NCBI GenBank assembly: GCA_016932575.1
Contig: JAFGCO010000011.1
Location: 10,851 to 74,850 of the forward strand
Origin: a bacterium
Lineage (GTDB): Bacteria > Zhuqueibacterota > QNDG01 > JAFGCO01
Length of the DNA stretch: 64,000 nucleotides
Reading direction: 5' to 3'
Below the pieces are notes generated by a model. That model saw nothing but the letters and a program-made list of their open reading frames with translations, had not been told where the DNA came from and made no database searches. The translations under genes were made by a program, and so were the position numbers. How positions within the stretch are numbered: position 1 is the first letter of the stretch; every line of letters begins with the position of its first letter. Shown here piece by piece: positions 15,866 to 46,655 of the stretch.

Positions 15866-15871
15866 TTCATT

Positions 15872-27339: not shown

Positions 27340-27574
27340 ATTTGATTTTATGTGAAACAAGGAGAATAAAATATAAACTGCGCCATCTGTGAAACTCCAA
27401 ATTTTGTCAGCAATGGCCCGTTTTTAAATAATAATCAAATTTTAAAACCTGTTTCCTCAATACTTATGCAATGATTTAACATTTTTTCAGAAATTTTAAA
27501 GAGATTTCTTGAAATTTCAATAATTGCTCAATATATTGGAACTATATACAGTCCGAACGAAACAAGGTGTTTGC

Positions 27575-30193
27575 ATGCAAAATGCCAGTATCCTGATCGT
27601 TGAAGATGAAGTGATTATCGCCTATGATCTTCAGCAAAAGCTGCAAACGTTGGGTTATCAGGTTCCCGATATATGCACCTCTGGTGAAGAAGCTATAGAA
27701 AGCACAAACAAACATCTGCCGGATCTCATTCTTATGGATATCCGGCTTCATGGAAATATGTCAGGAATCGAAGCCGTCGAACAGATCCAAAAACAACACG
27801 ACATGCCCATCATATACCTGACTGCTCATACGGACACATCCACCCTTGAAAAAGCAAAGCATACACGGCCTGAGGGGTACCTTGTCAAGCCTATTGATGA
27901 CGAACAATCCATTTACGGCCCAATAGAAATCGCATTACACAAACATCAGATGGAAACCATTCTCAAGGAAAGGGAATCCTGGTTCGCTTCAACTCTGCAA
28001 AGCATTGAAGATGCAGTTATTACCATCGATCATCTGGGAAATATTACTGTAATGAATCCCAAAGCCCAAATGATGACAGGCTATTCAAAATCACCCTCTC
28101 CTGAACAAAGCATCGATGAAATTATCCCTCTGTCGTTAAATAAAAAATCCATATATATCTCCAGGTGGATGCAGGAAACCATCAAGACCGGTCAATCCAT
28201 CAATCTTCCGGATAACACACTCCTTCATAACCTGAATGGAACCGTTTTTAATATCGAAGGCACAATTACTCCAATCTTCTCACCAAAAAACGAGGTGTTG
28301 GGCGCGGTTTTTTCCTTTCGAAATATCACTGAAAGAAAAAAAATGGAAGACCGGCTTCGAATGACCCAGTATTCTCTGAATCATGTCGGTGAAGGCGCTT
28401 TCTGGATACGAAAGGATGCTACTTTTGCCGCTGTGAATGAAACCGCCTGTAAAATGCTGGCTTATACTCGTGAGAGATTACTTCAAAAAACAATTGTTGA
28501 CATAGACAGTAATCTAAGCTTGAAGCGTTGGAATTTATATTGGGAGACGTTAAAGGAAAAACAGCATCATATTTTCGAGACAACACTATTCACAAGAGAC
28601 GGCCGAAAATTGCCTGTGGAAATCATTGGCAACTATCTGGAATATAATGAGGTCGAATACAATTTTGCAATTGTCCGCGATATTACGGAAAGAATCATTA
28701 ATATAAAGGCACTGCAGGAAAGTAAACGAAAGCTCAGTTTATTCGCACGGAATTTCAGGGGGATCGCTTATCAGGTACAGGCCAAAGGCGAGCATGAATA
28801 TATTATTTCACATCTTGAAGGCGATCTGGAACGTATCACAGGTTATCCCTCTGAACTGTTTCACTCGGGAGAAATGCATTGGAATCAACTTATTCATCCG
28901 GATGATCTCGACAAAGTGCTTTCAGAAGACAAAAAGATGATCACCATATCAGACTATACAGCTGATAATGAATATCGGATCATTAAAAAGGATAAAAGTA
29001 TCCGTTGGGTCAGAGATATTGCCCGTATCATTGAAACGGAAAAGAATCTGATCTATCAAGGTTCGATTTTTGATATCACCGAACGTGTACAAGCGGAACA
29101 GGCGCTCAGAGAAAGTGAAGAAAAATATCGAAGTCTCGTCGAACTGGCAAGTGATGGCATTCTCATTGTTCATCAGGGATGGATTCGTTTCGCAAATAAC
29201 AGGCTAATCTCAATGTTCGATCTTCCGGCCAGCAAAGTGCTGAATACCCGATGGCTGGATCATGTTATTCCTGAAGACAAATCCATAGTAACAAAATACT
29301 TTAAAAATCAAATGCATAATAAAGAGATAACAGAAACCTTCGAGATTCAAATCTATCTTCGCAACAATCAAATACTGCCTGTCGAAATCAGTATGGGACA
29401 TATCCCATTCCATGAAGAAAAAGCATATTTGGTCTTTGTCCGTGATATTCGCGAACGGAAGAAAGCAGAATTGGCCATGCAGCAGGCCCAACGCACGTAT
29501 CATCTGGCTTCATTGGGAACTCTGGCTGCCGGCATTTCTCATGAAATCAATCAGCCGCTGACAGCGCTGAAAGTTAAAGTGGACGGCCTGCTCTATTGGG
29601 GAAAAGAAAATCCTGATATTTTACAAAGAAATTTAAAGAGCAATTTGCATTTTATCTCAGAGCAGGCAGAAGAAATCAATAAGATCATCAAACACATGCG
29701 CTCGCTTATCTATCAGGAAAAAGGTCCCTTAACCAAAATCCATATCAATCAGGTTATCCAAAAAGCCTGCCGTTTTGTGGAGCAGAGACTTTCCTCTCAT
29801 GGCATTGTTCTCAATCTCAGATTAACCCCGCGAGATCCAAGCGTTCTCGCCATTGAAACGCCTTTGGAACAGATTGTATTAAATCTCATCACCAACGCCC
29901 TTAACGCATTGAATCGTACCGATCTGAATGAGAAAATCATCGAAATACAGACACAGCGCAGGCATGGTTATTGTTTTATCCATGTCAGGGATAACGGCCC
30001 CGGCATCCCGGAAGACAACATGAACCGGATTTTTGATCCATTATTTACAACGGAAAAAAATGGAAAAGGCATGGGACTGGGCCTTGCCATTGTGGAAGAA
30101 TTGCTAAGACAATTCAAGGGATCTATTAAGGCAAAAAATCAGACAACAGGTGGCGCTCAAATGACCGTACAGATACCATTAATTAATGAATAA
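27575..30193 (+). CDS. Hybrid REC-PAS(xN)-HisKA-HATPase sensor kinase
   Basis: The track start 27524 is TTG. ATG 27575 (MQNASILIVEDEVIIAYDL...) has AAGGTG upstream. Multiple PAS repeats. H-box ISHEINQPLTAL. HATPase GMGLGLAI. Confidence 0.8.
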   Translation: MQNASILIVEDEVIIAYDLQQKLQTLGYQVPDICTSGEEAIESTNKHLPDLILMDIRLHGNMSGIEAVEQIQKQHDMPIIYLTAHTDTSTLEKAKHTRPEGYLVKPIDDEQSIYGPIEIALHKHQMETILKERESWFASTLQSIEDAVITIDHLGNITVMNPKAQMMTGYSKSPSPEQSIDEIIPLSLNKKSIYISRWMQETIKTGQSINLPDNTLLHNLNGTVFNIEGTITPIFSPKNEVLGAVFSFRNITERKKMEDRLRMTQYSLNHVGEGAFWIRKDATFAAVNETACKMLAYTRERLLQKTIVDIDSNLSLKRWNLYWETLKEKQHHIFETTLFTRDGRKLPVEIIGNYLEYNEVEYNFAIVRDITERIINIKALQESKRKLSLFARNFRGIAYQVQAKGEHEYIISHLEGDLERITGYPSELFHSGEMHWNQLIHPDDLDKVLSEDKKMITISDYTADNEYRIIKKDKSIRWVRDIARIIETEKNLIYQGSIFDITERVQAEQALRESEEKYRSLVELASDGILIVHQGWIRFANNRLISMFDLPASKVLNTRWLDHVIPEDKSIVTKYFKNQMHNKEITETFEIQIYLRNNQILPVEISMGHIPFHEEKAYLVFVRDIRERKKAELAMQQAQRTYHLASLGTLAAGISHEINQPLTALKVKVDGLLYWGKENPDILQRNLKSNLHFISEQAEEINKIIKHMRSLIYQEKGPLTKIHINQVIQKACRFVEQRLSSHGIVLNLRLTPRDPSVLAIETPLEQIVLNLITNALNALNRTDLNEKIIEIQTQRRHGYCFIHVRDNGPGIPEDNMNRIFDPLFTTEKNGKGMGLGLAIVEELLRQFKGSIKAKNQTTGGAQMTVQIPLINE

Positions 30194-31649
30194 TGGTGGC
30201 ATAATGATGCATATTTTACTGGTTGAAGACAACACAGGAGTCCGGGAAAGTCTGGTCGAATTACTCCAGAATCTCGGCTATCAGATCACAAGCTGTGAAA
30301 ATGGAAAAATTGCCATGGACATCCTCAATCAGTCGGATATTAATGTGGTCCTGTCTGACATCATGATGCCGGTAATGAATGGACATCAATTACTGAAAAA
30401 TGTTAAAGACAAGGATTCGTTAAAACATATTGAAGTCATCTTATTTACAGGACATGGAGACGTGAAAAGCGCTGTGGAAGCCATGCGTGACGGCGCATAC
30501 GATTATTTGGTCAAACCGGTGAATGTTGAGGAATTGGACGTGGTTTTAAAACGGCTGAATGATCTTTTTCAATTAAAAACAGACCATGAAAAACTCAGCC
30601 ATCATTTTAAGGAAGAAGTTCAAAAAGCCACGCAGGAAATTGAGAATGAATTAATTGCCATTCGCAAGGCATTTGCACGGGAAATTGGCACAGTTGAAAT
30701 TGGTATTTTTTCAAAATCCATGAAACAGGTTTTCGGACGCGCAGAAAAACTGCATCAGAATCCCGACATTCCTGTACTCATTGAAGGAGAAACAGGGACT
30801 GGAAAAGAGCTGGTGGCTCATTTCATCCATTATGGGCATGGCGATGTGGTCGCTCCTTTTGTGGGATTAAACTGTGCGGCACTCAGCGCCAATTTATTTG
30901 AAAGCGAGCTGTTCGGTTACGAACCCGGTGCATTTACCGGAGGCAGCCCCAGGGGTCAAAAAGGCAAACTGGAACTAAGCGGGAATGGTTCTCTTTTCCT
31001 GGATGAAATTACGGAAATGCCGGCTGAGCACCAGGCCAAGTTGTTACGGGTAATTCAGGAACGGGAATTTTTCCGTGTGGGGGGGTTAAAAAAAAAGGAA
31101 GCCAAAGCCAGGTTCATTTGCGCAACGAACCGGAATGTAAAAGAAGCCGTTAAAAACGGCTCTTTTCGTCAGGATCTATACTTCCGGTTGAATATCGGAC
31201 ATATCCGTATTCCTCCGCTGAGAGAGCGTCCGGAATCTATTTTACCAATGGCTCTTTTATTTTTGAAACAACTGACAAAGCAGAAAGCCACACATTTCCA
31301 GAAAATTTCTCAAAAAGCCAGTGAGATGCTTCAAAAGTATCATTGGCCGGGCAATGTACGTGAGTTAAAAAATCTGATCGAACGCATTGTTCTGTACTGG
31401 GATGACGAAGAAATCCGGCCAACTCATGTTCGTGCCTGCCTTGAAAGTATCCCAAGCCCTTATATGTCCAATAAAATAAACGAAATCCCTGAAGAATTCC
31501 AAATGCCCGGAAACCGTATGGATTTAAATAAACATGTATTGACCCTGGTAAAAAAGGCCCTGGATATGCATCAGGGCAATCAAACGCAGACCGCCCAGTA
31601 TCTTGGAATTTCTGTCCGCGTCTTGCATACATATATGAAAAAATTATAA
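30186..31649 (+). CDS. Sigma-54-dependent response regulator (NtrC family; REC + AAA+ activator + Fis-type HTH)
   Basis: ILLVEDN...DVVLSDIMMP, Walker A GETGTGKE, GAFTGG motif ESELFGYEPGAFTGG, C-terminal HTH. It overlaps the upstream kinase gene by 8 nt. Alternative starts are ATG 30204 or 30207. Confidence 0.85.
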   Translation: MNNGGIMMHILLVEDNTGVRESLVELLQNLGYQITSCENGKIAMDILNQSDINVVLSDIMMPVMNGHQLLKNVKDKDSLKHIEVILFTGHGDVKSAVEAMRDGAYDYLVKPVNVEELDVVLKRLNDLFQLKTDHEKLSHHFKEEVQKATQEIENELIAIRKAFAREIGTVEIGIFSKSMKQVFGRAEKLHQNPDIPVLIEGETGTGKELVAHFIHYGHGDVVAPFVGLNCAALSANLFESELFGYEPGAFTGGSPRGQKGKLELSGNGSLFLDEITEMPAEHQAKLLRVIQEREFFRVGGLKKKEAKARFICATNRNVKEAVKNGSFRQDLYFRLNIGHIRIPPLRERPESILPMALLFLKQLTKQKATHFQKISQKASEMLQKYHWPGNVRELKNLIERIVLYWDDEEIRPTHVRACLESIPSPYMSNKINEIPEEFQMPGNRMDLNKHVLTLVKKALDMHQGNQTQTAQYLGISVRVLHTYMKKL

Positions 31650-31855: not shown

Positions 31856-31871
31856 TGGCATAATTCATGCA
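31856..31871 (+). promoter_or_regulatory. Sigma-54 -24/-12 promoter (TGGCAT-N5-aTGCA)
   Basis: caaccTGGCATaattcaTGCAttt. GG and GC are correctly spaced, with one mismatch at the first T of the -12 element. It is ~90-170 nt upstream of the first chemosensory gene and directly downstream of the NtrC-like gene. Confidence 0.6.
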
Positions 31872-32023
31872 TTTAAAGTTTTGTTTATTGATTCGCTGAC
31901 TTTAAGAAAAATGACAGAGCATAGATACAATGCCGCGTTTAATCATTGATAAAGTTCATGACAGGAATGAAAAGGGATGCCGAAATGCAGCTTGCCAACG
32001 CTTTGAAGAAAGTGGGGTCTCCG

Positions 32024-33037
32024 ATGAAGCTCCTGATTATTGATGATCAACCTCAAGTAACAAACAGCCTTAAAGAAGCCATCGAGCCTGGAGGACATGA
32101 ATGTGTGGTATTTAACCAGCCCCAAAAAGCCGTTTCACATTTTCAGAACGAATACTTTGATGCCGTCATTACCGATTTGAAAATGCCTGAAATGGATGGC
32201 ATTCAAGTCTTAAAAATGATTCAAAAAAATCGTCCGGGCACTCCGGTGATTATCCTTACAGGATATGCCGACACACAAAATGCCATAGAAGCAGTAAATC
32301 TCGGGGCATACGGTTTTTTTCAAAAGCCGGTTCAAATTCAGGAACTGCTGGAATCTCTCAAACAGATCGAATTAAAAATTCAGGAAGACATGTTGAGGGA
32401 TATCCGACTGAACCAGTTGCAGGCAGAAAAGGAAAAAATGTCCACTGAACTGAAAGAACGCATCAACCAGACTCTTCAGCTCATCAGCAGCCTGTTGCGA
32501 ATGCAATACGGAAAAATGGAAAACAGCCAGGCAAAAAAAGCGCTTCATTCCGCCTATCAACGCATACATACCATGGCATTGATTCATGAACGTATTTATT
32601 CAGAAGGTCACGCAGCAAAACTGAATCTGGCTGAATATATCAAACGTTACATGAATACATTTTCACAAATCAATCAATTGAATGAGAAAAATATCACCAT
32701 TGATTTGCAACTCGAACCTGTCACCGTGGATGTCAATCATGCCATCCCCTGGGGTTTGGTATTTAACGAACTGATCGCCAATGCCATTTCTCATGCCTTT
32801 TCAGACTCCAATGGAAATGACAACAGAATTTATGTGTCTCTAAACCGAAATAAAAGCAATGCCATTACTTTGAAAGTCAGTGACAACGGAAAAGGAATCG
32901 ATCAAAAAATAAATATGGATGAATATGCTTCTTTAGGCATGAACCTGATTTCAAATATTGTACGATATCAGCTTAACGGAAATATCGATATTCAATCCAA
33001 ATCCGGAACCTGTATAAAGATTGTTAGCCCCTCATGA
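32024..33037 (+). CDS. Response-regulator receiver fused to a degenerate HisKA_2-like domain (phospho-His replaced) plus HATPase_c
   Basis: Receiver MKLLIIDDQPQ...AVITDLKMPEMDG. The DHp segment aligns with the HisKA_2 kinase at 14444..15865 ([24 protein letters not shown] versus EKEKMSTELKERINQTLQLISSLL), so HH is replaced by KE. HATPase follows. The track start 31946 is TTG. Confidence 0.7.
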   Translation: MKLLIIDDQPQVTNSLKEAIEPGGHECVVFNQPQKAVSHFQNEYFDAVITDLKMPEMDGIQVLKMIQKNRPGTPVIILTGYADTQNAIEAVNLGAYGFFQKPVQIQELLESLKQIELKIQEDMLRDIRLNQLQAEKEKMSTELKERINQTLQLISSLLRMQYGKMENSQAKKALHSAYQRIHTMALIHERIYSEGHAAKLNLAEYIKRYMNTFSQINQLNEKNITIDLQLEPVTVDVNHAIPWGLVFNELIANAISHAFSDSNGNDNRIYVSLNRNKSNAITLKVSDNGKGIDQKINMDEYASLGMNLISNIVRYQLNGNIDIQSKSGTCIKIVSPS

Positions 33038-33076: not shown

Positions 33077-33712
33077 ATGGACAATCAAGATCAAGTTAAG
33101 TATATCTGGCATCAGTGGGTCTGTTTTAAATTGGGCAATGAAGAGTTTGGTGTGGATATACTCAAAGTCAGAGAAATTGTACGCATCCAATCGATTACCC
33201 ATGTTCCACAGACACCTGATACAGTTGCCGGAGTGATCAATCTGCGAGGCAATGTCATTCCGGTAATCGATTTGCCCAAAAAGCTGGGTCTGCCTGAATC
33301 CAACCGGGACGACAAAGCACGAATCATTGTTTTTTTCGTCGGTGATAAACTGATCGGAATGATTGTAGATCATGTCGAACGTGTACTGCGTATCAGAAAA
33401 GAGCAGATTGAATCGCCTCCGGATATTGGTGCAGGCAGAATTCAGGATTATATTGAAGGCATGGGAAAAGTTGAGAAAGACCTGATTGTCTTACTGAATA
33501 TCGACAAAATATTAACCGAAGAAGATATTATTCAAATCGAAGATTTGAAAAAAATGAAACAGGCAACCGAACAAATAAAGGCATCGAAAATACCGCCTGA
33601 AAAAACTGTCAGAAAACCAGAATCCACATCGAAAACCGCAACGAAAAAAAAGACAAAATTGAATCTCCCGGTTGCTAAAAAAAAGAATCAGAAAAAATTA
33701 TCGAAAAAATAA
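33077..33712 (+). CDS. cheW: CheW-like coupling protein with a lysine-rich C-terminal tail
   Basis: GVDILKVREIVRIQSITHVPQTPDTVAGVINLRGNVIPVIDL. Confidence 0.8.
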   Translation: MDNQDQVKYIWHQWVCFKLGNEEFGVDILKVREIVRIQSITHVPQTPDTVAGVINLRGNVIPVIDLPKKLGLPESNRDDKARIIVFFVGDKLIGMIVDHVERVLRIRKEQIESPPDIGAGRIQDYIEGMGKVEKDLIVLLNIDKILTEEDIIQIEDLKKMKQATEQIKASKIPPEKTVRKPESTSKTATKKKTKLNLPVAKKKNQKKLSKK

Positions 33713-33731
33713 AAAAAGGGGAGAATCTGGC

Positions 33732-35873
33732 ATGACTGTTAAAAAGATACTGGGCATAAGTATAATAATCTTGTCAGGTATTGATATCGGATTTGCCCAA
33801 AAGACCGAAGATCTGATGTCTATGTCTCTCGAAGATATCCTTAACATGAATATTTTTTCAGTATCCAAGCAGGCAGAGAATATCTTCGAGTCCCCGCTTT
33901 CAGCATCAGTGATTACTCGGGAAGATATTCTGAACTCAGGCGTGACCACATTAGAAGAGGCTTTACGCCTCGCACCCGGGTTGATTGTTCGTGAAGAAAG
34001 CCACGGAAATTATGATATTCATATTCGGGGTATGGATAATATCCCGCCGGGTAATTTTACATCATTCAGTGAAAATACCATGACATTGGTCATGATCGAC
34101 GGTCGAAAGGTTTTCAATCATCTGAATGGCGGCACATTCTGGGAAACACTTCCGATCGGCATTGATGAAATTGAACGTATCGAAATTATACGCGGTCCGG
34201 CTGCCTCCTTGTATGGTCCCAACGCAGTCACGGGTGTGATCCATTTTATTACCAGGGAGGCACATATAGACAAGTCTGGTATTTCTGGAAATATCACACA
34301 AGGGCACCCAAACTCATCAATCGGTGAACTGAATGCTTTTTATAAACCGAGGAATAATATGGGTATGAAAATCAGCGCTATTGGGGAACAAAGAGAACGG
34401 TTTCAGGACACCTATCATTCATATTTACATGATGCAGAAGTGCCTTATGATTCGCTTCGGCCTTATCGAATCGATCCTTCCACAGATCAGGGTTACCCTG
34501 AAATTAAAGACAAGAACATTTCAAAAAAACGCTGGAGCAGCACAATCAGATTGAATTGGGACATTTCCAAATCGATAAAACTTGATATAAGCGGCGGCTA
34601 TCAGGATTCAAGAGCACAAACCGTATTTATGGAAACTTTTGCCACACCATTAAGCATTCGTACTTCAAAAACAAGTTATGCCAATATCAATGCTACTATT
34701 TACGGTTTTCAGTTACAGATTTCCGGTCAGACGGGAATACAGGACATGAAAGAAAATTTTAAAATTGTATCGAAATTCGATATGCGCATGTTTGATGGTA
34801 ATTTAGAATACGCCTGGGAAAAAGGTCCGCTGAAACTCAGGCCCGGAATGAGCTGGCAGGAAGTAATGTACAAAGATACGCCTTATCTGACTCCTGAGCA
34901 GCTGGATATGGGGTATTTAAACGCTGAACGAACTCTGAGCAATTATGCCTATTTTTTAAGGACAGAATATCAGCCTGTCAATCCTGTCCGCATTATAGCT
35001 GCTCTGCGTACCGATTATTATAATTACCCGGATACGGCCTATATTAATTATCAGCTGGCTGCAACATATCGAATAAATGGCAACAATATCATTCGAGGAG
35101 TCTATTCACGAGCCAATCGCGGTCCCTTTTTCATGGATATTTATACGGATGTTTCTGAATATATTGACGAAAAACAAATTGAATATCTGGGCAACAGAAA
35201 TTTACGATTACCATTAACAGATATGGCTGAAATTGGTTTTCGCAGCCGACTTTCAAAGCGAGTGCAAATGGATATTGAACTCTATTACAGCACAACCCGG
35301 GATCTGACCAGCCTTGATGTAAATACGATTGGATATATTGAGAATCAACCTTCAAATTTCAGCAGTCTGGGATATATCTACCACAATATTCGTTCGACAG
35401 CACGGCAGATGGGAATCACAGGCAATTTCAGCATCACCTTGAGTCAGTCATTAAAAAGTCGTTTTTACGGTTCAATCCAAAAAACGGAACTTGAAGATTT
35501 CGGCTGGAAAACCTCACCCTTTGAATTACAACCTGAAGAAGGATCACTTATACATAAAAATACTCCGGCATTTTATGGCGGCCTTTTACTCACATATCAT
35601 CCTTCCCATTCATGGACAGTAAACGGGAGCATTTATTATCTGGGTTCTCATATGTATCGGCATGATTACGCCTCGATAGATGAAGCCAATGGTGAAATAA
35701 AGCTGAAATCCAGACTCATTCCGGCAATCCATGTGAGATATAAATTTTTCAAAGAAAATTCGGTATACTTCACCCTGAAAAATTTCATTACCGATCAACG
35801 GGAATTCGGTTTTGCAGAATCTACCGGCCTGTCCATATTCGGAGGATTCCGGTGGGCATGGGCAAAGCCATAA
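33732..35873 (+). CDS. TonB-dependent outer-membrane receptor
   Basis: Signal peptide MTVKKILGISIIILSGIDIGFAQ. Plug domain SPLSASVITREDILNSGVTTLEEALRLAPGL...IERIEIIRGPAASLYGPNA. About 700 aa of beta-barrel. The track start 33672 is an upstream extension. Confidence 0.75.
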   Translation: MTVKKILGISIIILSGIDIGFAQKTEDLMSMSLEDILNMNIFSVSKQAENIFESPLSASVITREDILNSGVTTLEEALRLAPGLIVREESHGNYDIHIRGMDNIPPGNFTSFSENTMTLVMIDGRKVFNHLNGGTFWETLPIGIDEIERIEIIRGPAASLYGPNAVTGVIHFITREAHIDKSGISGNITQGHPNSSIGELNAFYKPRNNMGMKISAIGEQRERFQDTYHSYLHDAEVPYDSLRPYRIDPSTDQGYPEIKDKNISKKRWSSTIRLNWDISKSIKLDISGGYQDSRAQTVFMETFATPLSIRTSKTSYANINATIYGFQLQISGQTGIQDMKENFKIVSKFDMRMFDGNLEYAWEKGPLKLRPGMSWQEVMYKDTPYLTPEQLDMGYLNAERTLSNYAYFLRTEYQPVNPVRIIAALRTDYYNYPDTAYINYQLAATYRINGNNIIRGVYSRANRGPFFMDIYTDVSEYIDEKQIEYLGNRNLRLPLTDMAEIGFRSRLSKRVQMDIELYYSTTRDLTSLDVNTIGYIENQPSNFSSLGYIYHNIRSTARQMGITGNFSITLSQSLKSRFYGSIQKTELEDFGWKTSPFELQPEEGSLIHKNTPAFYGGLLLTYHPSHSWTVNGSIYYLGSHMYRHDYASIDEANGEIKLKSRLIPAIHVRYKFFKENSVYFTLKNFITDQREFGFAESTGLSIFGGFRWAWAKP

Positions 35874-35901
35874 CAATTCCAGTAATAAAAGGCAATCTAT
35901 C

Positions 35902-36144
35902 ATGAATATAAAAACGATCGCAGAATTCTTTTTATCGATTCTATGCCCGGGTTTTCTTTTCAATCTTCAGACCCGGGAGATCGACAGTAAAATTCTGCTG
36001 AATTTCACTTTAACGCATCATATCCATACGAATATCGATCTGTTTGTGAATACACGCAACGTATTGGGTAATAACTCCCAGGAATTTGGATTTACCGACA
36101 ATACAAACCGGCTCTGTCTGTCAGGCCTGCGTTTTGAATATTAA
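35902..36144 (+). pseudogene. Duplicated C-terminal fragment of a TonB-dependent receptor (80 codons)
   Basis: ...VNTRNVLGNNSQEFGFTDNTNRLCLSGLRFEY aligns with the C-terminus of the adjacent receptor (...KNFITDQREFGFAESTGLSIFGGFRW). It ends in the canonical terminal aromatic residue. It is in a different frame from the full gene. Confidence 0.35.
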
Positions 36145-36169
36145 TAACGGCTCAATCCTGGAGGCTATG

Positions 36170-36694
36170 ATGGCCAAATTGTTTATAAAAATATTCATTC
36201 TGATCATGACAGGCATACTCATTCTCTTGCCTGTTTCACTGACGGCTCAGACAGAAAATACACCTGCGAGTCTTGCTGTTGCTCTGACCTTGAAATTGGC
36301 CGCTTTTGAAAAAAATATCGCGTCACAAGAAAATGTGACAATATTTGTTCTGGGAGCGCCTGATGTAGCTGTTGAGCTACAGAACGTCATCGGAAGTGCG
36401 ATTGGCAAAGCGACACTGACTGCCGTATCATCCGGAGATACATTGCCGGAACAGCCGCCCTCTTTACTGTTTGTCGGTTCTGAAGCCGATATCAATCAAG
36501 CCGTTGAATATGCAAAAAAGCACAACATCCTCAGCATCACAGGCGTGCCGCAGTTTGCCAGCAAAGGAGTAATCCTCGGAATCGGCATCGGAACAAACGG
36601 GAAACCCGTTGTTACATTAAACCTGACTTCAACGATCGAAGCGGGTATTTCCTGGAATCCTGCCATCATGAAAATCGCAAAAACAATCAAATAA
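36170..36694 (+). CDS. Second YfiR-like (DUF4154-like) periplasmic protein
   Basis: Signal peptide MAKLFIKIFILIMTGILILLPVSLTAQ. It aligns block-wise with the protein at 15872..16444 (ILSITGVPQFASKGVILGIGIGTNGKPVVTLNLTSTIEAGISWNPAIMKIA versus ILTVGDETNFSKDGGMINFIIKKKKIRFEINSEAVKQSGLKMSTKLLKMA). It lies 17 nt upstream of the first MCP. Confidence 0.55.
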   Translation: MAKLFIKIFILIMTGILILLPVSLTAQTENTPASLAVALTLKLAAFEKNIASQENVTIFVLGAPDVAVELQNVIGSAIGKATLTAVSSGDTLPEQPPSLLFVGSEADINQAVEYAKKHNILSITGVPQFASKGVILGIGIGTNGKPVVTLNLTSTIEAGISWNPAIMKIAKTIK

Positions 36695-36710
36695 GGGGTA
36701 AGAATATACC

Positions 36711-38288
36711 ATGTTCGAAAAAATTCTTAAAATAAGCAATTGGAAAATCAAATGGCGCATCATTCTTCTGATCAGCCTGATTGGCATTTTTGTCAGCATT
36801 CTTCTTGGCATTTACGCTCCCGGACAGGCCAGAAAAATGGGTGAAGCCATCCTGAAAAACGACGTGGGGTTTATTGCCAATCTGCTTGCCGACAATCTGG
36901 CTCTGGGTATGCAGACCCGCTTCTTCGATGAAGGCGCTTCATTGCAGCAAACTCTCGATATGTTAAAATCATCGGATGGACCTCAAAAAGGAACCATAAG
37001 CCAGGTTTATATCTTTGATGAGACTGGCGCATTCATCAGAGCTATGAAGGATGAAAAACCAATAGAGTTCAAGCAAACAAACAACATTGAAATCATCAAT
37101 AAAGGTGCCTATTTTCGTGTATGGATCCCCATGCAGGATATCGATCAGGCTGTTGTAGGATATCTGGCAATTGATTTTTCAAAGAATTTTTTCAAAAGAC
37201 AGGCAGATAAGATCGCATGGCTGGGTCTTCTGATTGGAATAATAGTACTGGCAGGCACTTTATTGGGAAGTATTTATCTCAGTCGCAGCGTTTCACAGGG
37301 ACTGCGCCGGGCTACCAATATCATGATTGACATTGCCGAAGGAGAAGGGGATCTAACCCGTCGTTTGCCTGTGGAATCTGAAGACGAGGTAGGAGAACTG
37401 AATCGGTGGATCAATGCCTTTATGGACAGGCTGCATGATCTGATCTCCCAGGTAAGGGACAACACAGACCAGGTAATCGGGGCTGTCGGACTGATTACGA
37501 ACGCTGCCAATGAAATGGCCTCGGGTGCCGAAGAACAGACTGCTCAGGCTTCCGAAGTATCTGCCGGTGTGGAAGAAATGACGTCTTCTATCATGCAAAC
37601 TTCACAAAACGCCGGTGAAACAGCGAAAATCAGCGAATCCGCCACAAATAAAGCCAAACAGGGTTCTGAGGCCATGCAAATGACACGCGAGGGTATCCGT
37701 GATATTGTGACATCAACGGGTAAGATGCGAGATATCATTAAAACTTTAACAGAACGCGCCGGCCAGATTGATAAAATTATCCAGGTGATCGACAAAATTG
37801 CTGATCAGACCAACCTGCTTGCATTAAATGCCGCAGTTGAAGCTGCACGAGCTGGTGAACAGGGCAGCGGTTTCGCAGTAGTCGCCGATGAAGTGCGAAA
37901 GCTGGCTGAACGCACCACAAATGCCACCAAAGAAATCGCGGAAACCATTCAGGCCATACAGCAGGATACGCATATGGCATCGGAGTCTATGGATGAAACA
38001 AACAGTAAAGTGGCCCACGGTGAATGGGCAACAGAGCAAACTGAAAAAGTGCTCGGTGAAATCGTGGACATTGTAGCGCAGGCCATGGATATGATTCAAC
38101 AAATTGCCGCGGCCGCTGAAGAACAAAGCGCTGGTGCCGAAGAAATTTCAAGCAGTGTCGAAACCATCGCCAGTATCACCAAACAATCCGCGGTAAACGC
38201 AGAAACCATGGCCTCTGCCGCACATCAATTAAATAAACAAACAGCTGTCCTTCAGAAGGCAGTCAGTTTGTTTAAATTACGTAAATAA
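36711..38288 (+). CDS. Methyl-accepting chemotaxis protein (TM, ~150-aa periplasmic domain, TM, HAMP, MCP signalling domain)
   Basis: [29 protein letters not shown]. Signalling core [34 protein letters not shown]. Confidence 0.85.
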
Positions 38289-38415
38289 CACATAATCATC
38301 AAGGGCACCTGATCGTGAAACCAGTATCCCTTTAACGAAATCACGTCCAGGCGCTCCATTGTAAATAAAAAACAGAATGGGGCAACGTTATTATATATAA
38401 AAAAAGGATGATCCA

Positions 38416-40047
38416 ATGTTTAAACGATTGAAATTCAGAGAAAAATTATTTTCAATCCCCCTGGCTATACTCTTTTTCTTTTTTATTGCTATCATCGGCG
38501 TCACGATTATCAACAACAGATCAGCACATAACCGGAACAGCTTAATCAGCGAGGGATACTGTCCGGCTTATATGATCAGTCGGGACATGGCGGAACAGCT
38601 CGTCACCATTAAAATGAAACTCCAGGAGGCTGTTTCGACTATGGAAGAAGAAACACTTCTTGAAGCGGATGAAGCAAGAAATACATTTATTGCTTTAATC
38701 AATAAGGGAATACAAAATCCGGTTTTAGAGGATAAAATTGATTTGCTTGTCAGACGCAAGCAGGATCTTGAAGAATACTACAATCATGCTTATAAAATCA
38801 GCAAGCAGATGATTAATGGTTATATGAACAGAGATCTCATGAACGAGCTGGAAACCATGAATAAAAGGTATGAAAATCTCAAAATCGGGATTGAACAGGA
38901 TCGCGACATTTTTGAAAATGAAATGAACATGAATTTTAAAAAAATGGAAAAAAACAACAACGTTTCTTTCTTTATTATGGTAGGTTTGATAATCATCTCA
39001 ATGACAACCATAGGTATTGTGAATTACCATATCACCAATACAATCACCAGAAATCTGAATGAGATGGTCAATATGATGAAAGCCATTGCAAAAGGTGAGG
39101 GTGATTTGACCAAAAGGCTCACTGTATATTCAAATGATGAATTGGGAGATCTGGCCAATTGGTTCAACCTTTTTGTAGAGAAATTACATGCGATTATCAG
39201 TCAGGTACGACTCAATACCAACCATGTATCCAGCGCAGCTTCCACCATAAGCGCCACTGCGATACAAATGGCTGCCGGGTCTGAAGAACATAACACGCAA
39301 GCCGGAGAAGTATCTGCCAGTGTTGAAGAAATGACTGCCTCGATTATGCAGAATTCCAAAAACGCGGGAGAAACAGCTAAAATTGCAGAAGAGGCCAGTG
39401 ACCGTGTAAAACAAGGCACAGAAACCGTACAGACCACTCGCCAGGGCATGGAGCGTATTGTACAAGCATCTTTAAAAATGGAATCCACCATTAAGTCACT
39501 GACCAATCGAGCATTACAAATTGGTGAAATCACACGGGTCATTGATAAAATTGCCGATCAAACCAACCTTCTTGCCTTAAATGCTGCTGTGGAAGCGGCG
39601 CGCGCCGGCGAACAGGGCAGCGGTTTCGCGGTGGTTGCGGATGAAGTCCGCAAATTGGCCGAACGAACTGCAGAAGCAACCGGTGAAATTGCGGAAACCA
39701 TTGAAGCTATTCAAAAAGATACCATTGAAGCTTCCGAATCCATGATGGAAACCAAAGATGCTGTCGATTCCGGAAAAAATTCTACAGAACAGGCAGAAAT
39801 AGTATTGGCAGAGATTCTTAATTCCGTGAATCAGGCCGTGGATATGATACAGCAAATTGCCGCCGCTTCAGAAGAACAAAGCGCCGGTGCTCAGGAAATA
39901 TCAGGCAGTATAGAACAAATGAATTCTGTCTCCAGACAAACCTCTGATGGTTCAGAGAAAATGTCTACAGCGGCCCAGGAATTAAAGTCACAAACAGAAG
40001 TGCTAAGCGCGCTGGTTAATCATTTTAAATTAAATCACAATATATAG
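38416..40047 (+). CDS. Methyl-accepting chemotaxis protein (second paralog, distinct sensor domain)
   Basis: The HAMP and signalling core are identical in type to the first MCP ([34 protein letters not shown]). SD AAAGGA. Confidence 0.85.
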
Positions 40048-40062
40048 ACAGGCCTGAGGGAA

Positions 40063-40899
40063 ATGATAGAAACGCCATACATTGTCACATATCCGGTATC
40101 TGATGCTGAATTTCAATTGATACAAAAGTTAATATATGAGACTGCGGGAGTATACATCAAATCCCATAAAAAAACAATGGTTGCCAACCGTCTCAGAAAA
40201 AGACTGGAGGCTCATGGCTTCAGCAGGCATAAACAGTATTATGATTTTATCACAAAGACACCGGAAGGACGACAAGAATTAATTGAATTTATTAATTGCC
40301 TGACCACCAATGAGACTTTTTTCTTTAGGCATGGCGAACAATTGGATCTCTTGGCAGAAAAAATTATTCCTCAACTTCTTTCTGAACTGAAACCTTCGGA
40401 AAAACTCCGAATATGGTCTGCCGCCTGCTCATCGGGTGAAGAACCTTATTCTATTGCAATATTGCTCCATCACAAATTCAGGCCAGATGTCCTGAAACGT
40501 ATTGAAATAGTGGCATCCGATATTAACATTCAGGTATTGGAAAAGGCCAAACAGGGGGATTATAAACCGTATGCACTGCAAAAGGTATCGCCATTTTTCA
40601 AGGGTCATTACTTCGAAAAAAAATCCGAAGACAAATATCACCTGATCCGGCCAGTGAAAGAAATGGTTCAATTCTTTCGCCATAATTTATTAGAATCCAA
40701 TCACCACGGAAAATTTGATATTATTCTCTGCCGTAATGTAATGATCTATTTCGATATTGAAAGTAAAAAGAAAACACTTGGGCAAATAGACCTGTGTTTG
40801 AAAAAGGGCGGATATTTGATGACCGGTTACGCAGAAAGTCTTTTTAGAATAGAAACCACTTTAAAGTATATACAACCGACACTCTATTTCAAAGAATAG
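40063..40899 (+). CDS. cheR: Chemotaxis protein methyltransferase CheR
   Basis: RIWSAACSSGEEPYSIAILL is the CheR SAM-binding domain. Confidence 0.85.
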   Translation: MIETPYIVTYPVSDAEFQLIQKLIYETAGVYIKSHKKTMVANRLRKRLEAHGFSRHKQYYDFITKTPEGRQELIEFINCLTTNETFFFRHGEQLDLLAEKIIPQLLSELKPSEKLRIWSAACSSGEEPYSIAILLHHKFRPDVLKRIEIVASDINIQVLEKAKQGDYKPYALQKVSPFFKGHYFEKKSEDKYHLIRPVKEMVQFFRHNLLESNHHGKFDIILCRNVMIYFDIESKKKTLGQIDLCLKKGGYLMTGYAESLFRIETTLKYIQPTLYFKE

Positions 40900-40913
40900 G
40901 TAAATCGATCACC

Positions 40914-42995
40914 ATGCATACCATATTTGATGAATATAAAATTGCTTTTCTTGAGGAAACCCAGGAACATCTGATCATGTTGAACGACGATTTAATTGCT
41001 CTCGAAAAAAATCCTTCCCAGACTGATCTTATTGACAGCATTTTTCGTGTTTTGCATACCCTGAAAAGTTCGGCAGCCGCTGTCGGTTTCAATGAGCTGA
41101 GTCAGTTTGCCCATCGTGCTGAAGATCTGGTCCAACAAATTCGTAATAAACAGAGAAAAATCACTCCTAAACTTGTCAATCTTCTGTTCCAGGTGTTCGA
41201 TAACATTCAGGCATTCATCAACCTTGCTCAGTCAGATCATGCCGACAACAAAATATTCTCCCAAGTATTACGGCAGCTGATGGCCTATAAAAGCCGAAAA
41301 GGCCGAAAAAATATTCGTATAAAACCGGAGATACCCGCTTCTGCATCCGTGCAGCAGTTGCCGGCCGAGATTCAGACCCATCTTAATCAAAAGACCGGAA
41401 GAGATGCGACTCTCTACGAAATTTCTGTTTGCATTGATACTGCTGAACCCATTAAATGGCTGCGTTCGGAACTCATTCTAAATCATGCAAAAAAACTCGG
41501 GGAAATTGTCGCCATTGTACCGGACAAATCTTCATTTCAATCCATCGCGTTTGATGGCAGATTCAAACTCTTTCTTTCATCAAAACAAAACGCAGCAACC
41601 ATTCAAAAAAAGATTACGATTGATTTGATGAAAATTGAGAACATTCAAGTGCTTTCACCGAACGACATGACCAATTCAAACACTCCTCAATCATCCCAGG
41701 TTGAGAACAATCGCAATCGCTTCAACAATTACAAACAAGCCGGAAAAACCAATACCATTCGTGTGCCAATAAAAAAGCTGGACAGTATCATGCACCTTGT
41801 GGGAGAATTGGTGGTGGCCAATTCAGCGTTAAAAATACTGGAAAATCAGATTCATAATATTCATCGAGACGACCCGATCTCTCATGAAATGAATTTAATT
41901 GTAGATAAATTTTCCAAGCTGTCGACATCACTACAAAGCAGGGTGTTAAACACGCGTATGATGCCGATTTATATCCTGTTTAATCAATATAACCGGGTTG
42001 TCCGCGACCTTTCTCAAAAGGAATCAAAAGAAATTGATTTATTAATCAGCGGAGGCGAAACCGAGCTGGACAAAAAAGTAATCGATGCCATGGGCGACCC
42101 TCTGACCCATCTGATACGAAATGCAGTAGATCATGGTATTGAATCACCTCAGGAACGGAAAAGCAAAGGTAAAAACCTCCGGGCAAAAATTCAATTGTCT
42201 GCAGCACAGGCTGGAAACCACATCCTTATTTCAATTAAGGATGACGGAAGGGGTCTTGATTTAAATAAAATCCGAACGACCGCTGTGGAAAAGGGATTGC
42301 TGCAAAAAGAGGCAGCTGACAGTATGGCGGAATCCGAAATTCTGAATATGGTTTTTGAACCCGGATTCAGCACCGCTGAAAAGGTGAGTTCTGTTTCAGG
42401 AAGAGGGGTTGGTTTGGATGTGGTAAATAATATTATCAGCAGTCTGAATGGAACTGTTCAGATTAATTCCCGACAGAATCAGGGAACTGAATTTTTAATT
42501 ACACTTCCATTAACACTGGCAATATCCACAGTTATTGTCGTAGAAGCGGGGAAAAGCAGTTATGGTATTCCCATCAATGATATTCGCGAGACGATTAAAG
42601 TACCTGAGCATGAATTAAACACACGGCAATGCATTCGTGCACTAAACTTGGAAAATCGTGTTATCCCGGTATTGGGGCTTGATCAGATTCTTGACGAAGC
42701 ACCGGCGCGATTGCCCAAAGACATCCATGGGAATGTTCCTGTCATTATCGTCACTTACCAGGAGCGTGAAATCGGACTCATCGTCGATCGCATTATGGGT
42801 AAACAGGAAATTGTCATGAAACCATTAGAAGAACATTATAAATCAATTCGCGGTGTATCCGGGGCCGCTATTCTGGGGGATGGGACTGTAATTCTCATCG
42901 CCGATGTACTGGGCATCATACAAATTGTAAGAGACATTGAAAAAGAAGACCAAAAATCCCAAACAACCATAAAGGAAAAGGTACAACCATGTTAA
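40914..42995 (+). CDS. cheA: Chemotaxis histidine kinase CheA (Hpt, dimerisation, HATPase, CheW-like)
   Basis: Hpt VLHTLKSSAAAVGF. HATPase LTHLIRNAVDHGIE...GRGVGLDVV. C-terminal CheW-like domain. Confidence 0.9.
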   Translation: MHTIFDEYKIAFLEETQEHLIMLNDDLIALEKNPSQTDLIDSIFRVLHTLKSSAAAVGFNELSQFAHRAEDLVQQIRNKQRKITPKLVNLLFQVFDNIQAFINLAQSDHADNKIFSQVLRQLMAYKSRKGRKNIRIKPEIPASASVQQLPAEIQTHLNQKTGRDATLYEISVCIDTAEPIKWLRSELILNHAKKLGEIVAIVPDKSSFQSIAFDGRFKLFLSSKQNAATIQKKITIDLMKIENIQVLSPNDMTNSNTPQSSQVENNRNRFNNYKQAGKTNTIRVPIKKLDSIMHLVGELVVANSALKILENQIHNIHRDDPISHEMNLIVDKFSKLSTSLQSRVLNTRMMPIYILFNQYNRVVRDLSQKESKEIDLLISGGETELDKKVIDAMGDPLTHLIRNAVDHGIESPQERKSKGKNLRAKIQLSAAQAGNHILISIKDDGRGLDLNKIRTTAVEKGLLQKEAADSMAESEILNMVFEPGFSTAEKVSSVSGRGVGLDVVNNIISSLNGTVQINSRQNQGTEFLITLPLTLAISTVIVVEAGKSSYGIPINDIRETIKVPEHELNTRQCIRALNLENRVIPVLGLDQILDEAPARLPKDIHGNVPVIIVTYQEREIGLIVDRIMGKQEIVMKPLEEHYKSIRGVSGAAILGDGTVILIADVLGIIQIVRDIEKEDQKSQTTIKEKVQPC

Positions 42996-43618
42996 ATCTT
43001 GCCGAGGAATTAAACAAGGTCAATATCTCCAAATCCACCTTTAACCAAATCAAACACATCTTTCAATATGGATTTGACCAGGCGGCACATTCGGCTTCAA
43101 CAATGTTTGGTCGTCCCATGACCATCGATCAAATTCAAATCCAGATAAAAAGCGGTGAAACCTTTATGAATCAGGTTGAAAATGAATTTGAAACATGCTA
43201 TTTCGCCTCTATCATTAAAACCATGAACGACATGAACTTAAATATCCTCTTCCTCACATCTGAAACAGAAGGCATCGGGTTGTATCACTCATTGATTGGA
43301 GAAGAGAAAAGAGCAAATGTTTTCGTCACATCAGAAATGATTTCCGCTATTGGAGAACTCAACAATATTCTTGGAAGCGCCTTTATCAACAGCATTGCAA
43401 ATTACTTTAAAACAATTATTCATGCAACCCCCCCTTATAATACATTTGATATGTTGGGGGCTGTGGTTCAATGTATCGTATTGCAGGATGAGTTTTTAAA
43501 CAAAGAATTTTTATGTGTGGATGCGGCCATTCGTGAAAAGGAACATGAGGGATTTCTGATTCGATTAATCATCATGTCGAATAAAGATCTATTTATTGAA
43601 CTGGCAAACCGATTCTAA
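42989..43618 (+). CDS. CheC-like CheY-P phosphatase (CheC/CheX/FliY family)
   Basis: Two-repeat architecture. SAIGELNNILGSAFINSIANYF fits the S-x3-E-x2-N active-site motif. It overlaps the cheA stop by 7 nt. Confidence 0.6.
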   Translation: MLNLAEELNKVNISKSTFNQIKHIFQYGFDQAAHSASTMFGRPMTIDQIQIQIKSGETFMNQVENEFETCYFASIIKTMNDMNLNILFLTSETEGIGLYHSLIGEEKRANVFVTSEMISAIGELNNILGSAFINSIANYFKTIIHATPPYNTFDMLGAVVQCIVLQDEFLNKEFLCVDAAIREKEHEGFLIRLIIMSNKDLFIELANRF

Positions 43619-43626
43619 AAGGCCCG

Positions 43627-44100
43627 ATGGAAACCTTTTTAAAAATGTCCGAAATCCGGGTGGCAAAGGCACCTTGCGTGATTAAAACTGTTGTCGGATC
43701 ATGTATTGCGCTTTGTATTTGGGACAGGGAAACCAGGATTGGAGGAATGGCCCATATTATGATGCCAAGCAATAATGGAGATACTTCGGCACCAAAAGGC
43801 AAATACGCAGATCTTGCTGTGGATGCACTCATTAATGAAATGCAGGAAAAAGGTGCTGTCCTAAAAGATATGATTGCCACCTGTATAGGCGGAGCAACCA
43901 TGTTTGGAAAAGTCAACGGATTAAAACCGACAATTGGCGAACGTAATGTGGAAATTGTCAAATCTCTTTTAACAGATTACACGATTCCAATCATGATTGA
44001 ATCTGTGGGCGGATTTGCAGGAAGAAAAGTTGCTTTGGACTGTAATAATGGGGCTGTAACTGTGACGATGCTTAATAAAAAATTTCAGTATGATTGGTGA
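43627..44100 (+). CDS. cheD: Chemoreceptor glutamine deamidase CheD
   Basis: VVGSCIALCIWDRETRIGGMAHIMMP. Confidence 0.8.
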   Translation: METFLKMSEIRVAKAPCVIKTVVGSCIALCIWDRETRIGGMAHIMMPSNNGDTSAPKGKYADLAVDALINEMQEKGAVLKDMIATCIGGATMFGKVNGLKPTIGERNVEIVKSLLTDYTIPIMIESVGGFAGRKVALDCNNGAVTVTMLNKKFQYDW

Positions 44101-44106
44101 TAAACC

Positions 44107-45192
44107 ATGAGTCATTCAAAACAAGAAAAGCCCATAGGGGTTCTATGCGTTGATGACTCTCCTCTCATTCGTAAAATTCTGACGCGGATGATTGGAAAAC
44201 ATCCGGATCTGAAGCTTTTGGGGACCGCACATAACGGAAAAACGGCATTGGAAGAAATCGCCAGGAAAAAACCGGATGTTATTACCCTTGACTTTGAAAT
44301 GCCTGAAATGGATGGGCTGGAAACTTTGCGCCGAATCATGCAGGAAATGCCAACACCCGTCATCATGTTAAGCTCATATTCTGTCGAAGGTGCGGATTTA
44401 ACATTTCGAGCTCTGGATCTCGGCGCTGTGGACTTTATTGCCAAACCGCACAAGATTTTTTCTCGAAGCATAGAAGATATTGAAACGCAAATTTTAAATA
44501 AAATCCGCGCGGCCAGTCAGGTCCATGTTAAAAAAATGGATCCTGTTCAAATAAAATCTGCTCTCAACAGTCAGCATCTGCATAAAGAACATAAAAAATC
44601 AATCCGGATACGTGCCTGTGACTATGTCATTTCTATTGGAGTTTCCACTGGCGGACCATTGGCTCTAAAACAAATATTGCCGATGATACCGGCAGATATC
44701 AATGCTTGCTTTTTAATTGTGCAGCATATGCCGCCGGGATTCACAAAAGCATTGGCTGACCGTTTAAACGAAATTGCTTCTGTTGATATCAAAGAAGCGG
44801 ACGACGGCGATCTTTTGATGAGTGGTAAAGTCTATATCGCAAAAGGCGACCACCATTTGATCGTACGCGGAGCGAACCATGGCTGGATTACAGGACTCAG
44901 CATAAATGGGCATGTATCCAGTTTTCGGCCTTCGATTGACGTTTTAATGAACTCAACATCCAAATATTTTGAAGACAGAAATATTGGCGTCATCATGACA
45001 GGCATGTGCGCCGATGGTGTCAAAGGCGTTCAAAGCATAAAGAATAAAAACGGACGGGTGATTGCACAAGATGAACGGACATCCGTCATTTTTGGAATGA
45101 ATAAACTGGCAATACAGGCGGGTTATGTCGACGAAATCGTTCCTTTAAATCAAATTATTCCTAAAATTCTGGAACACATTAATTACGCGTAA
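44107..45192 (+). CDS. cheB: Protein-glutamate methylesterase CheB (REC + methylesterase)
   Basis: IGVSTGGPLAL, QHMPPGFT. Confidence 0.9.
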   Translation: MSHSKQEKPIGVLCVDDSPLIRKILTRMIGKHPDLKLLGTAHNGKTALEEIARKKPDVITLDFEMPEMDGLETLRRIMQEMPTPVIMLSSYSVEGADLTFRALDLGAVDFIAKPHKIFSRSIEDIETQILNKIRAASQVHVKKMDPVQIKSALNSQHLHKEHKKSIRIRACDYVISIGVSTGGPLALKQILPMIPADINACFLIVQHMPPGFTKALADRLNEIASVDIKEADDGDLLMSGKVYIAKGDHHLIVRGANHGWITGLSINGHVSSFRPSIDVLMNSTSKYFEDRNIGVIMTGMCADGVKGVQSIKNKNGRVIAQDERTSVIFGMNKLAIQAGYVDEIVPLNQIIPKILEHINYA

Positions 45193-45208
45193 AAGGAGGT
45201 GAAATCTT

Positions 45209-45718: not shown

Positions 45719-45731
45719 GGAGGATAGCTTA

Positions 45732-46094: not shown

Positions 46095-46216
46095 TTCACC
46101 TATCATGGATAATCGTATGATTCAGTTTTATATTGAACAAAGAGAAACCTTAATAGGAGTTAGACAGATGACAACAAATCATTCAGTCGATCCATTATAT
46201 CCATCAGGAGGTCTGC

Positions 46217-46639: not shown

Positions 46640-46655
46640 AATTGAGAAGAAACCA

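Follow-up and report, generated by a model that had tools for sequence, protein, structure and literature searches.

The window analyzed here is a 64,000-nucleotide (nt) stretch of contig JAFGCO010000011.1, and all positions are those of its full length. It carries, at the head of a chemosensory (che) operon, a gene for a receiver (REC) domain fused to a histidine kinase module of the HisKA_2 type from which the phospho-acceptor histidine is missing (Table 1). An open reading frame (ORF) is present at 31946..33037 on the plus strand, and the longest version of this frame opens at TTG 31946. The NCBI gene call is a 350-amino-acid (aa) version with its start at ATG 31985. The REC domain begins at ATG 32024, which gives the 337-aa product to which residue numbers refer throughout. 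Pfam matches to this product comprise Response_reg (residues 4-112; E value, 3.8e-28), HisKA_2 (PF07568; residues 142-214 on profile positions 1-73 with no indel; E value, 4.3e-16; 59.2 bits against a cut-off of 22.3), and HATPase_c (PF02518; residues 245-334; E value, 4e-10).

An AlphaFold2 (AF2) model of the protein (mean predicted local distance difference test score, 83.5; predicted template modeling [TM] score, 0.56) contains a canonical REC domain and a single unbroken helix (residues 105-164) that runs from REC helix alpha-5 through the signaling helix into the first helix of the dimerization and histidine phosphotransfer (DHp) domain. The second DHp helix (residues 168-193) and an alpha/beta domain for catalysis and ATP binding (CA) follow. 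The protein is thus modeled with the continuous signaling helix typical of receiver-controlled histidine kinases (Rec-HKs) of the LvrB/PhcR/CheS3 type. The top whole-chain Foldseek match was the Rec-controlled kinase LvrB (8vc9; E value, 1e-18), and the top match for the kinase core was EL346 (4r39; TM score of about 0.7).

An earlier note on this DNA, made from the sequence alone, had placed the gene at the head of the che operon, and its surroundings agree: cheW starts 40 bp downstream, the intervening DNA has no predicted terminator, and the 375-bp gap before the gene contains a sigma-54-type promoter motif, TGGCATAATTCATGCA, about 150 bp 5' of the ATG. Similar sigma-54-type motifs lie 5' of the orthologous gene in four other sets of loci (L001, L003/L008, L010, and L035).

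Table 1. Coordinates of the features discussed, in positions of the 64,000-nt window
Feature	Position	Strand	Basis or remark
Main gene: REC, signaling helix, His-less HisKA_2 DHp, and HATPase_c	32024..33037	+	Pfam, AF2 model
Receiver domain, aa 4-112	32033..32359	+	Pfam; D7, D8, D51, T79, K101 invariant in family
D51 codon, predicted phospho-acceptor Asp	32174..32176	+	Invariant column; aligns with phospho-Asp of CheY, CheB, and activator REC domains
Signaling helix (alpha-S)	32336..32446	+	AF2 model; LvrB-like architecture
HisKA_2-type DHp hairpin, aa 142-214	32447..32665	+	Pfam
K144-E145 codons AAA GAA, replacing x-His of H-box	32453..32458	+	E145 on acceptor position by alignments
N148 codon (His+3 position)	32465..32467	+	Column scan, Asn in 15/15 His-less
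HATPase_c catalytic/ATP-binding domain	32756..33025	+	Pfam; N box, G1, and G2 motifs kept
Sigma-54-type promoter motif	31856..31871	+	Correct -24 GG / -12 GC spacing
REC-PAS-PAS-HisKA-HATPase_c hybrid kinase (889 aa)	27524..30193	+	Pfam; synteny
REC/sigma-54 activator/HTH_8 enhancer-binding protein	30186..31649	+	Pfam; BLASTP versus loci
Genuine CHASE8-HAMP-HisKA_2-HATPase_c kinase	14444..15865	-	Pfam; sole other HisKA_2 dimerization domain in window
CheW	33077-33712	+	
TonB-dependent receptor	33672-35873	+	
DUF4154/YfiR-like	36086-36694	+	
Methyl-accepting chemotaxis protein (MCP), first	36711-38288	+	
MCP, second	38416-40047	+	
CheR	40063-40899	+	
CheA	40914-42995	+	
CheC-like	42989-43618	+	
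CheD	43627-44100	+	
CheB	44107-45192	+	
CheX	45209-45718	+	
CheY, first	about 45732-46094	+	
CheY, second	46217-46639	+	
Kinase with HDFNN-type H-box and HATPase_c (367 aa)	46656-47759	+	Last gene of che operon, whose part after the main gene spans 33077..47759

The H-box of the protein falls on ELKER (residues 142-146), as the earlier note had recognized, and three independent alignments put E145 on the acceptor histidine. BLASTP against the CHASE8 kinase of the same window (32% identity over the kinase core; E value, 1e-35) paired the H-box of that kinase with TELKERINQTLQ. In addition, phmmer against EL346 (PDB 4r3a/4r39), a solved HisKA_2 kinase, set AEVQHRVKNHL over TELKERINQTL, and E145 occupies the acceptor column in the MAFFT alignment of the family; the HisKA_2 profile match agrees with all three. 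Measured against the HisKA_2 H-box (E-x-x-H-R-x-K-N), the protein has also replaced the Lys and Asn three and four residues after the histidine. The change is not a sequencing error, because Lys-Glu (KE) recurs in an 83%-identical gene from another metagenome (P0002, locus L087) and because His-to-Glu and His-to-Lys each require at least two base changes.

A background sample of HisKA_2 kinases, the best 150 representatives from a search of 1.84 billion proteins, places the loss in context. All of the roughly 135 members outside the family keep the x-H-R signature. Although the first residue of the HH pair varies in this set (H, Y, Q, S, or N), the second is His in every nonfamily protein, which, with the alignments, identifies residue 145 as the acceptor position. 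A relocated H-box was considered and rejected: no profile alignment moves it elsewhere, His182 and His188 are not conserved, and the family alignments contain no alternative conserved His in the signaling helix or DHp of the His-less sequences. To judge from its sequence, then, the protein cannot perform canonical histidine autophosphorylation or His-to-Asp transfer and, the acceptor being absent, would lack the Rec-gated autophosphorylation and onward transfer to a downstream regulator that are characteristic of Rec-HKs.

The loss is not confined to one strain. A search of 5.8 billion proteins yielded 22 full-length relatives, and the representative search added six more; those that are named come from metagenome-assembled genomes (MAGs) of KSB1 or of an unclassified "bacterium." The histidine is retained, as HH, NH, AH, or QH, in 14 family members and is missing from 15 cluster representatives (41 to 83% identical), among them the 14 nearest to the window protein, which excludes a strain-specific lesion. 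Only the absence of His is conserved among these orthologues; the KE pair itself occurs in the window protein and P0002 alone. Elsewhere residues 144-145 are KQ or RQ (P0003 to P0006), KF (P0007), QI or QT (P0009, P0010, and P0121), KV or RV (P0011 and P0014), or HG, NG, or HS (P0016, P0019, and P0122), so that position 145 is Q in four sequences, I, V, and G in two each, and F, T, and S in one each. On the alignment, such variability is what a site no longer under constraint would show. P0016 and P0122, which belong to the three-member sub-lineage B, still have His as the first residue of the HH pair (EVHGRL and EVHSRL), with Gly or Ser as the acceptor residue. In neighbor-joining (NJ) trees the His-less sequences form four sub-lineages, each found in 200 of 200 bootstrap replicates, as is the family as a whole; the branching order of these sub-lineages relative to the His-bearing lineages is unsupported.

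A scan of every alignment column for residues that separate His-less from His-bearing members returned only four sites in the kinase core (145, 148, 149, and 179) and, elsewhere, only REC position 13. Position 145 changes from His to a variable residue. Position 148 (His+3) is Asn in all 15 His-less sequences, Lys or Arg in 13 of 14 His-bearing ones, and Lys in five of five outgroups; it shares a helical face with position 145. Asn149 gives way to Gln, Glu, Thr, or Asn in the His-less group, and Asn179, adjoining the invariant R180 on DHp helix 2, becomes variable. Other DHp residues (E142, R146, Q152, S156, and R180) are unchanged in both groups. The same holds for the N box (E249, N253, and H257-A-F), G1 (D287-N-G289-x-G291), and G2 (G305), so that the invariant nucleotide-box residues of HisKA_2 kinases (E249, N253, D287, G289, G291, and G305) are all present, and for the complete receiver pocket of Rec-HKs (D7, D8, D51, T79, and K101). 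The view in the earlier note that the DHp fold and HATPase_c domain are retained thus holds for Pfam matches, model, and motifs alike. As far as the alignments reveal, change is confined to the phosphotransfer center, and both ATP pocket and receiver are still selected.

Substitution rates indicate that the gene is maintained. The ratios of nonsynonymous to synonymous substitution (dN/dS) against the 83%-identical orthologue in L087 were 0.03 for REC, 0.15 for the helix plus DHp, and 0.06 for CA, and those against the 70%-identical orthologue in L001 were 0.03, 0.16, and 0.19, respectively; the values are rough, as synonymous sites are near saturation in both comparisons. The gene is under purifying selection in all three domains, and with ratios of 0.03 to 0.19 in every domain it is not a decaying pseudogene. 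Over DHp plus CA, the His-less sequences are on average no less identical to one another than the His-bearing ones are. The family has one defining property of pseudo-histidine kinases: the fold is kept, while the acceptor histidine is replaced across an orthologue group of 15 representatives that is under purifying selection. The degenerate or weak ATP site found in other pseudokinases is absent, all ATP-binding motifs being conserved, which chiefly distinguishes the family from DivL and PsmA.

The REC domain contains a strongly conserved, family-specific motif in its alpha1-beta2 region, S-L-K-E-A-I-E-P-G-G-H-E-C, whose last seven residues (EPGGHEC, aa 21-27) are encoded at 32084-32104. Within it P22, G24, and C27 are invariant and H25 nearly so, in His-bearing and His-less members alike. 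Such conservation could mark a candidate partner-docking, metal-binding, or redox-sensitive site.

Gene order is conserved around the gene. The arrangement of PAS kinase, sigma-54 activator, gene, and che genes was kept in every locus examined, both His-less (L001, L087, and L005) and His-bearing (L003/L004, L006, and L010); L009 is too short to cover the upstream genes. In the His-bearing positional orthologues the PAS kinase, activator, and gene are followed, as far as the retrieved flanks reach, by CheW/MCP genes. The PAS hybrid kinase lies immediately upstream in every orthologous locus that shows this region, and the sigma-54 activator is 50 to 62% identical across the loci (BLASTP). Two truncated relatives occupy the same position in L011 (candidate division KSB1; 3312-3782) and L012 (Latescibacterota; 10001-10471). 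They encode a 156- to 162-aa REC domain with a short coiled coil and no DHp or CA domain, and they lie between the sigma-54 activator and CheA, with CheA directly next. The conserved upstream kinase and activator, which the earlier note does not mention, may matter as much to the function of the gene as the che genes do, and the family suggests that uncultured bacteria of the KSB1 kind connect a Che-like pathway to a sigma-54 two-component system.

The location within a che operon and the intact REC domain, an arrangement repeated in the orthologous loci, match those of a CheA substrate, and the conserved upstream PAS kinase is a further candidate phosphodonor. The two are equally plausible donors for D51. 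Identity of the window REC domain to other receivers of the locus bears on the donor only weakly (31% to the activator REC, 29% to CheB, and 24 to 25% to the CheYs), as does the slightly closer resemblance of its helix alpha-1 to that of the sigma-54 activator than to those of CheY or CheB. The protein is not the only receiver of the pathway, given the two stand-alone CheY genes in the operon.

Characterized proteins each share part of this design. In LvrB, phosphorylation of REC drives the signaling helix into a coiled coil, which leads to release of the CA domain, autophosphorylation, and transfer to a downstream regulator (PMC13269768). The window protein likewise has an N-terminal phosphorylatable REC domain, a long signaling helix, DHp, and CA, with the receiver pocket and ATP boxes intact. 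LvrB differs in being autophosphorylated on H161 and transferring the phosphate to LvrC, whereas the window protein has replaced the acceptor His and three neighbors within a HisKA_2-type DHp. CheS3, from the che3 cluster of Rhodospirillum centenum, is a receiver-fused kinase of the HWE/HisKA_2 group whose REC domain controls the attached kinase; CheA3 phosphorylates REC, and H453 phosphorylates CheY3 (PMC3868531). Both proteins are encoded in che-like clusters, but CheS3 has a REC-REC-PAS-HWE architecture and needs H453, whereas the window protein has neither a PAS domain nor the histidine. As functional analogues, the His-bearing orthologues (P0008, P0017, and others) stand nearer to CheS3 than the window protein does and, on their sequences, look like ordinary Rec-HKs of the LvrB/CheS3 kind.

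Among pseudokinases, DivL of Caulobacter binds DivK~P on its response regulator-docking face and is devoid of both kinase and phosphatase activity (PMC4211667). It shares with the window protein a conserved histidine kinase fold and a replaced acceptor (Tyr in DivL); it differs in being HisKA type and PAS controlled, with weak ATP binding and no N-terminal REC domain, whereas the window protein has conserved ATP motifs and a REC input. In PsmA, a pseudo-histidine kinase of Streptomyces, Glu stands at the acceptor position in one species, whereas orthologues have D, Q, V, or Y there (PMC12963549); the position is released in the same way as residue 145. PsmA has degenerate ATP motifs and does not need its REC Asp, while both are strictly conserved in the window family. 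The closest solved kinase core, EL346 (PDB 4r3a), belongs to a group of LOV-domain histidine kinases (LOV-HKs) of which a subgroup without the phospho-acceptor His has been mentioned in passing (PMC10359499). These proteins are alphaproteobacterial and LOV controlled, with no REC input and no che context, and their His-less subgroup is uncharacterized. Pseudo-histidine kinases (DivL and PsmA), Rec-HKs in che clusters (CheS3), and a His-less LOV-HisKA_2 subgroup are already known. Absent from the literature searched is the following combination: a His-less HisKA_2-type Rec-HK with full ATP motifs and a fixed H-box Asn, at the head of a sigma-54-type che operon, with His-bearing and truncated orthologues at the same locus. 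A literature search on HisKA_2 plus pseudokinase found no papers.

We tentatively interpret the gene, with slightly less than even confidence, as a receiver-controlled pseudo-histidine kinase in which a REC-driven conformational change would itself be the output, acting through partner binding or dephosphorylation. An ordinary Rec-HK, composed of REC, signaling helix, DHp, and CA, would formerly have stood at the same locus and would have lost the phospho-acceptor His together with three neighboring active-site residues. D51 would still be phosphorylated, by CheA of the same operon or by the upstream PAS kinase. By analogy with LvrB, this phosphorylation may zip the signaling helices into a coiled coil and alter the packing of CA on the DHp bundle. 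The nucleotide-bound DHp-CA module could then bind a partner kinase or a partner receiver, for which either CheY of the operon or the neighboring sigma-54 activator is a candidate. The partner would be sequestered or sensed, as in DivL, or dephosphorylated, rather than phosphorylated. Function through protein-protein binding is proposed here from the known pseudokinases, and a catalytic role such as that of a phosphatase is conceivable in view of Asn148 and the intact ATP site; the literature searched contained nothing usable on a phosphatase motif for HisKA_2.

Several points weigh against the pseudokinase interpretation. It calls for a partner that is so far hypothetical. Among the products of the operon there are already CheC-like and CheX proteins, of families annotated as CheY-P phosphatases, as well as CheD, and a further CheY phosphatase seems redundant. 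The ATP site is fully conserved, unlike those of PsmA (degenerate) and DivL (weak binding), which a pure binding role does not explain and which would also permit a catalytic function. Conservation is far stronger in the REC domain than in the kinase core, and relatives with only REC and a helix occur at the same locus, so that the kinase core may be dispensable for the main function. Finally, the His-less sequences were monophyletic in only 4 to 5 of 200 NJ replicates once the H-box sites had been removed. On those bootstraps a single ancestral loss, as the NJ tree had first suggested, is not supported. The NJ results are compatible with one loss or several, and the shared Asn148 is suggestive of a common origin.

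Conservation of the REC domain raises the alternative that function is centered on the receiver, which would serve as a sink for phosphate, as a competitor, or, for CheA or the upstream kinase, as a CheY-like adaptor, with DHp-CA as a dimerization scaffold that is being lost. REC is the most conserved part of the protein (92% identical to P0002, against 75 to 80% elsewhere) and has the lowest dN/dS, and the truncated genes of L011 and L012 represent just such a receiver with a coiled coil. Nevertheless, every nucleotide-contacting motif is invariant although the domain as a whole is only about 30 to 40% identical, and a new Asn148 is fixed throughout the His-less group, neither of which is expected of a mere scaffold. 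The dN/dS of the CA domain (0.06 to 0.19) also argues against a function centered on REC, and we regard this alternative as rather unlikely.

A more novel possibility is that the His-less clade, beyond losing activity, gained a new catalytic center, which would comprise the invariant Asn148, Gln/Glu149, and a fully functional ATP pocket. In that case the protein, gated by its receiver and dependent on nucleotide, would be a dedicated phosphatase or a kinase for a non-His acceptor, and it would link the chemosensory array to the neighboring sigma-54 two-component system. We consider such a gain improbable; if true, Che-like pathways would have an output node of a new type.

Full conservation of the N, G1, and G2 boxes would also fit a noncanonical phosphotransfer, in which the CA domain phosphorylates a His of another protein, for instance in a DHp heterodimer with the CHASE8 kinase, or a non-His acceptor of its own. 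The gene for that genuine HisKA_2 kinase lies in the window as well and likewise stands behind a sigma-54-type motif and a DUF4154 gene, and the kinase is 32% identical in its core; moreover, the first His of the HH pair survives in two of the three sequences of sub-lineage B. However, the column scan revealed no other potential acceptor (His, Ser, Thr, or Tyr) that is conserved in the His-less group specifically, linkage of the gene to the CHASE8 kinase is so far known only from the window, and the Lys at His+3 and Asn at His+4, near-universal in HisKA_2 kinases, are lost as well. Transfer of this kind appears quite improbable.

The earlier note had also proposed an RsbW/RsbT-like serine kinase or partner-switching module. 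In the form related to RsbW, SpoIIAB, or LvrC, the Bergerat domain would be a receiver-gated serine kinase or anti-sigma factor. CA domains of the HisKA_2 type do resemble HATPase_c_2, which all 14 His-less members match (best E value, 6.5e-7), and a REC-Bergerat anti-sigma factor, LvrC, is known (PMC13269768) and is among the structural matches (9qih). The HATPase_c_2 score of the window protein (22.6 to 22.8 bits) is nevertheless below the Pfam cut-off of 27.4, and His-bearing relatives give a comparable match. RsbW/SpoIIAB-type proteins have a single N-terminal dimerization helix, whereas the window protein retains the complete two-helix HisKA_2 hairpin, and all 14 His-less members match both HisKA_2 and HATPase_c. 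A profile of the His-less clade favors EL346 (E value, 1e-21) over SpoIIAB (8e-3) and RsbW (0.23). The STAS proteins and anti-sigma antagonists recommended as a search target, and sigma factors likewise, were absent from the scanned or inspected ORFs of the window, eight large ORFs at 53088-63843 being unscanned. By sequence and fold the protein is a histidine kinase module and not an RsbW-type protein, so that partner switching of this kind is a weak proposal and a distinctly doubtful one.

The suggestion in the earlier note that Glu145 mimics phosphohistidine and locks a constitutive "phosphorylated" state is very improbable because residue 145 is so variable among His-less orthologues: Glu occurs in the window sequence and P0002, but 13 of the 15 have Q, F, I, V, G, T, or S, including sequences of the same sub-lineage that are 67 to 75% identical, and the inactive pseudokinase PsmA likewise has Glu in one species and other residues elsewhere.

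Rec-controlled histidine kinases are common, and their mechanism of activation has only just been solved (LvrB, in 2026); few cases of bacterial pseudo-histidine kinases are known. The locus described here provides, in one genomic position, a natural series from an active kinase through a His-less kinase with an intact ATP site to a bare REC domain and helix. This series could reveal which elements of the Rec-HK switch are required when signaling is independent of phosphotransfer and why an ATP pocket is kept without an acceptor. The finding overturns no concept, and the gene is known only from organisms that are not in hand.

Other features of the window concern its regulation and the composition of the che operon. 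The pattern TGGCAY-N5-WTGCW occurs four times in the window, against 0.59 expected (2019-2034, plus strand; 16772-16787, minus strand; 31856-31871, plus strand; and also 27572-27587, minus strand). Three copies lie just 5' of operons: a 1,706-aa DUF2334/glycosyl-hydrolase-like gene with a glycosyltransferase cluster; a minus-strand operon for DUF4154, the CHASE8-HisKA_2 kinase, and a hybrid kinase; and the che operon. This distribution suggests that the three operons share a sigma-54 regulon, possibly under the activator encoded at 30186-31649.

DUF4154/YfiR-like modules occur twice in the window. The one at 12493-16477 (minus strand) precedes the CHASE8-HAMP-HisKA_2 kinase and a REC-PAS-HisKA-HATPase-REC hybrid kinase, and that at 33672-36694 (plus strand) accompanies the TonB-dependent receptor within the che operon, directly before the two MCPs. 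An outer membrane protein within a che cluster is unusual, and relatives differ in their outer membrane partner, which may be a porin, an alginate-export-like barrel, or one or two TonB-dependent receptors.

The distal part of the operon (42989-47759) combines CheC-like, CheD, and CheX proteins with two near-duplicate CheYs and a terminal kinase, which follows the second CheY by 17 bp; for a single pathway, proteins that handle CheY-P are unusually numerous here. At the proximal end, CheW has a long, Lys-rich C-terminal tail (33560-33712; …KKKTKLNLPVAKKKNQKKLSKK), and its ORF overlaps the longest frame of the next gene, for the TonB-dependent receptor, by about 40 bp.

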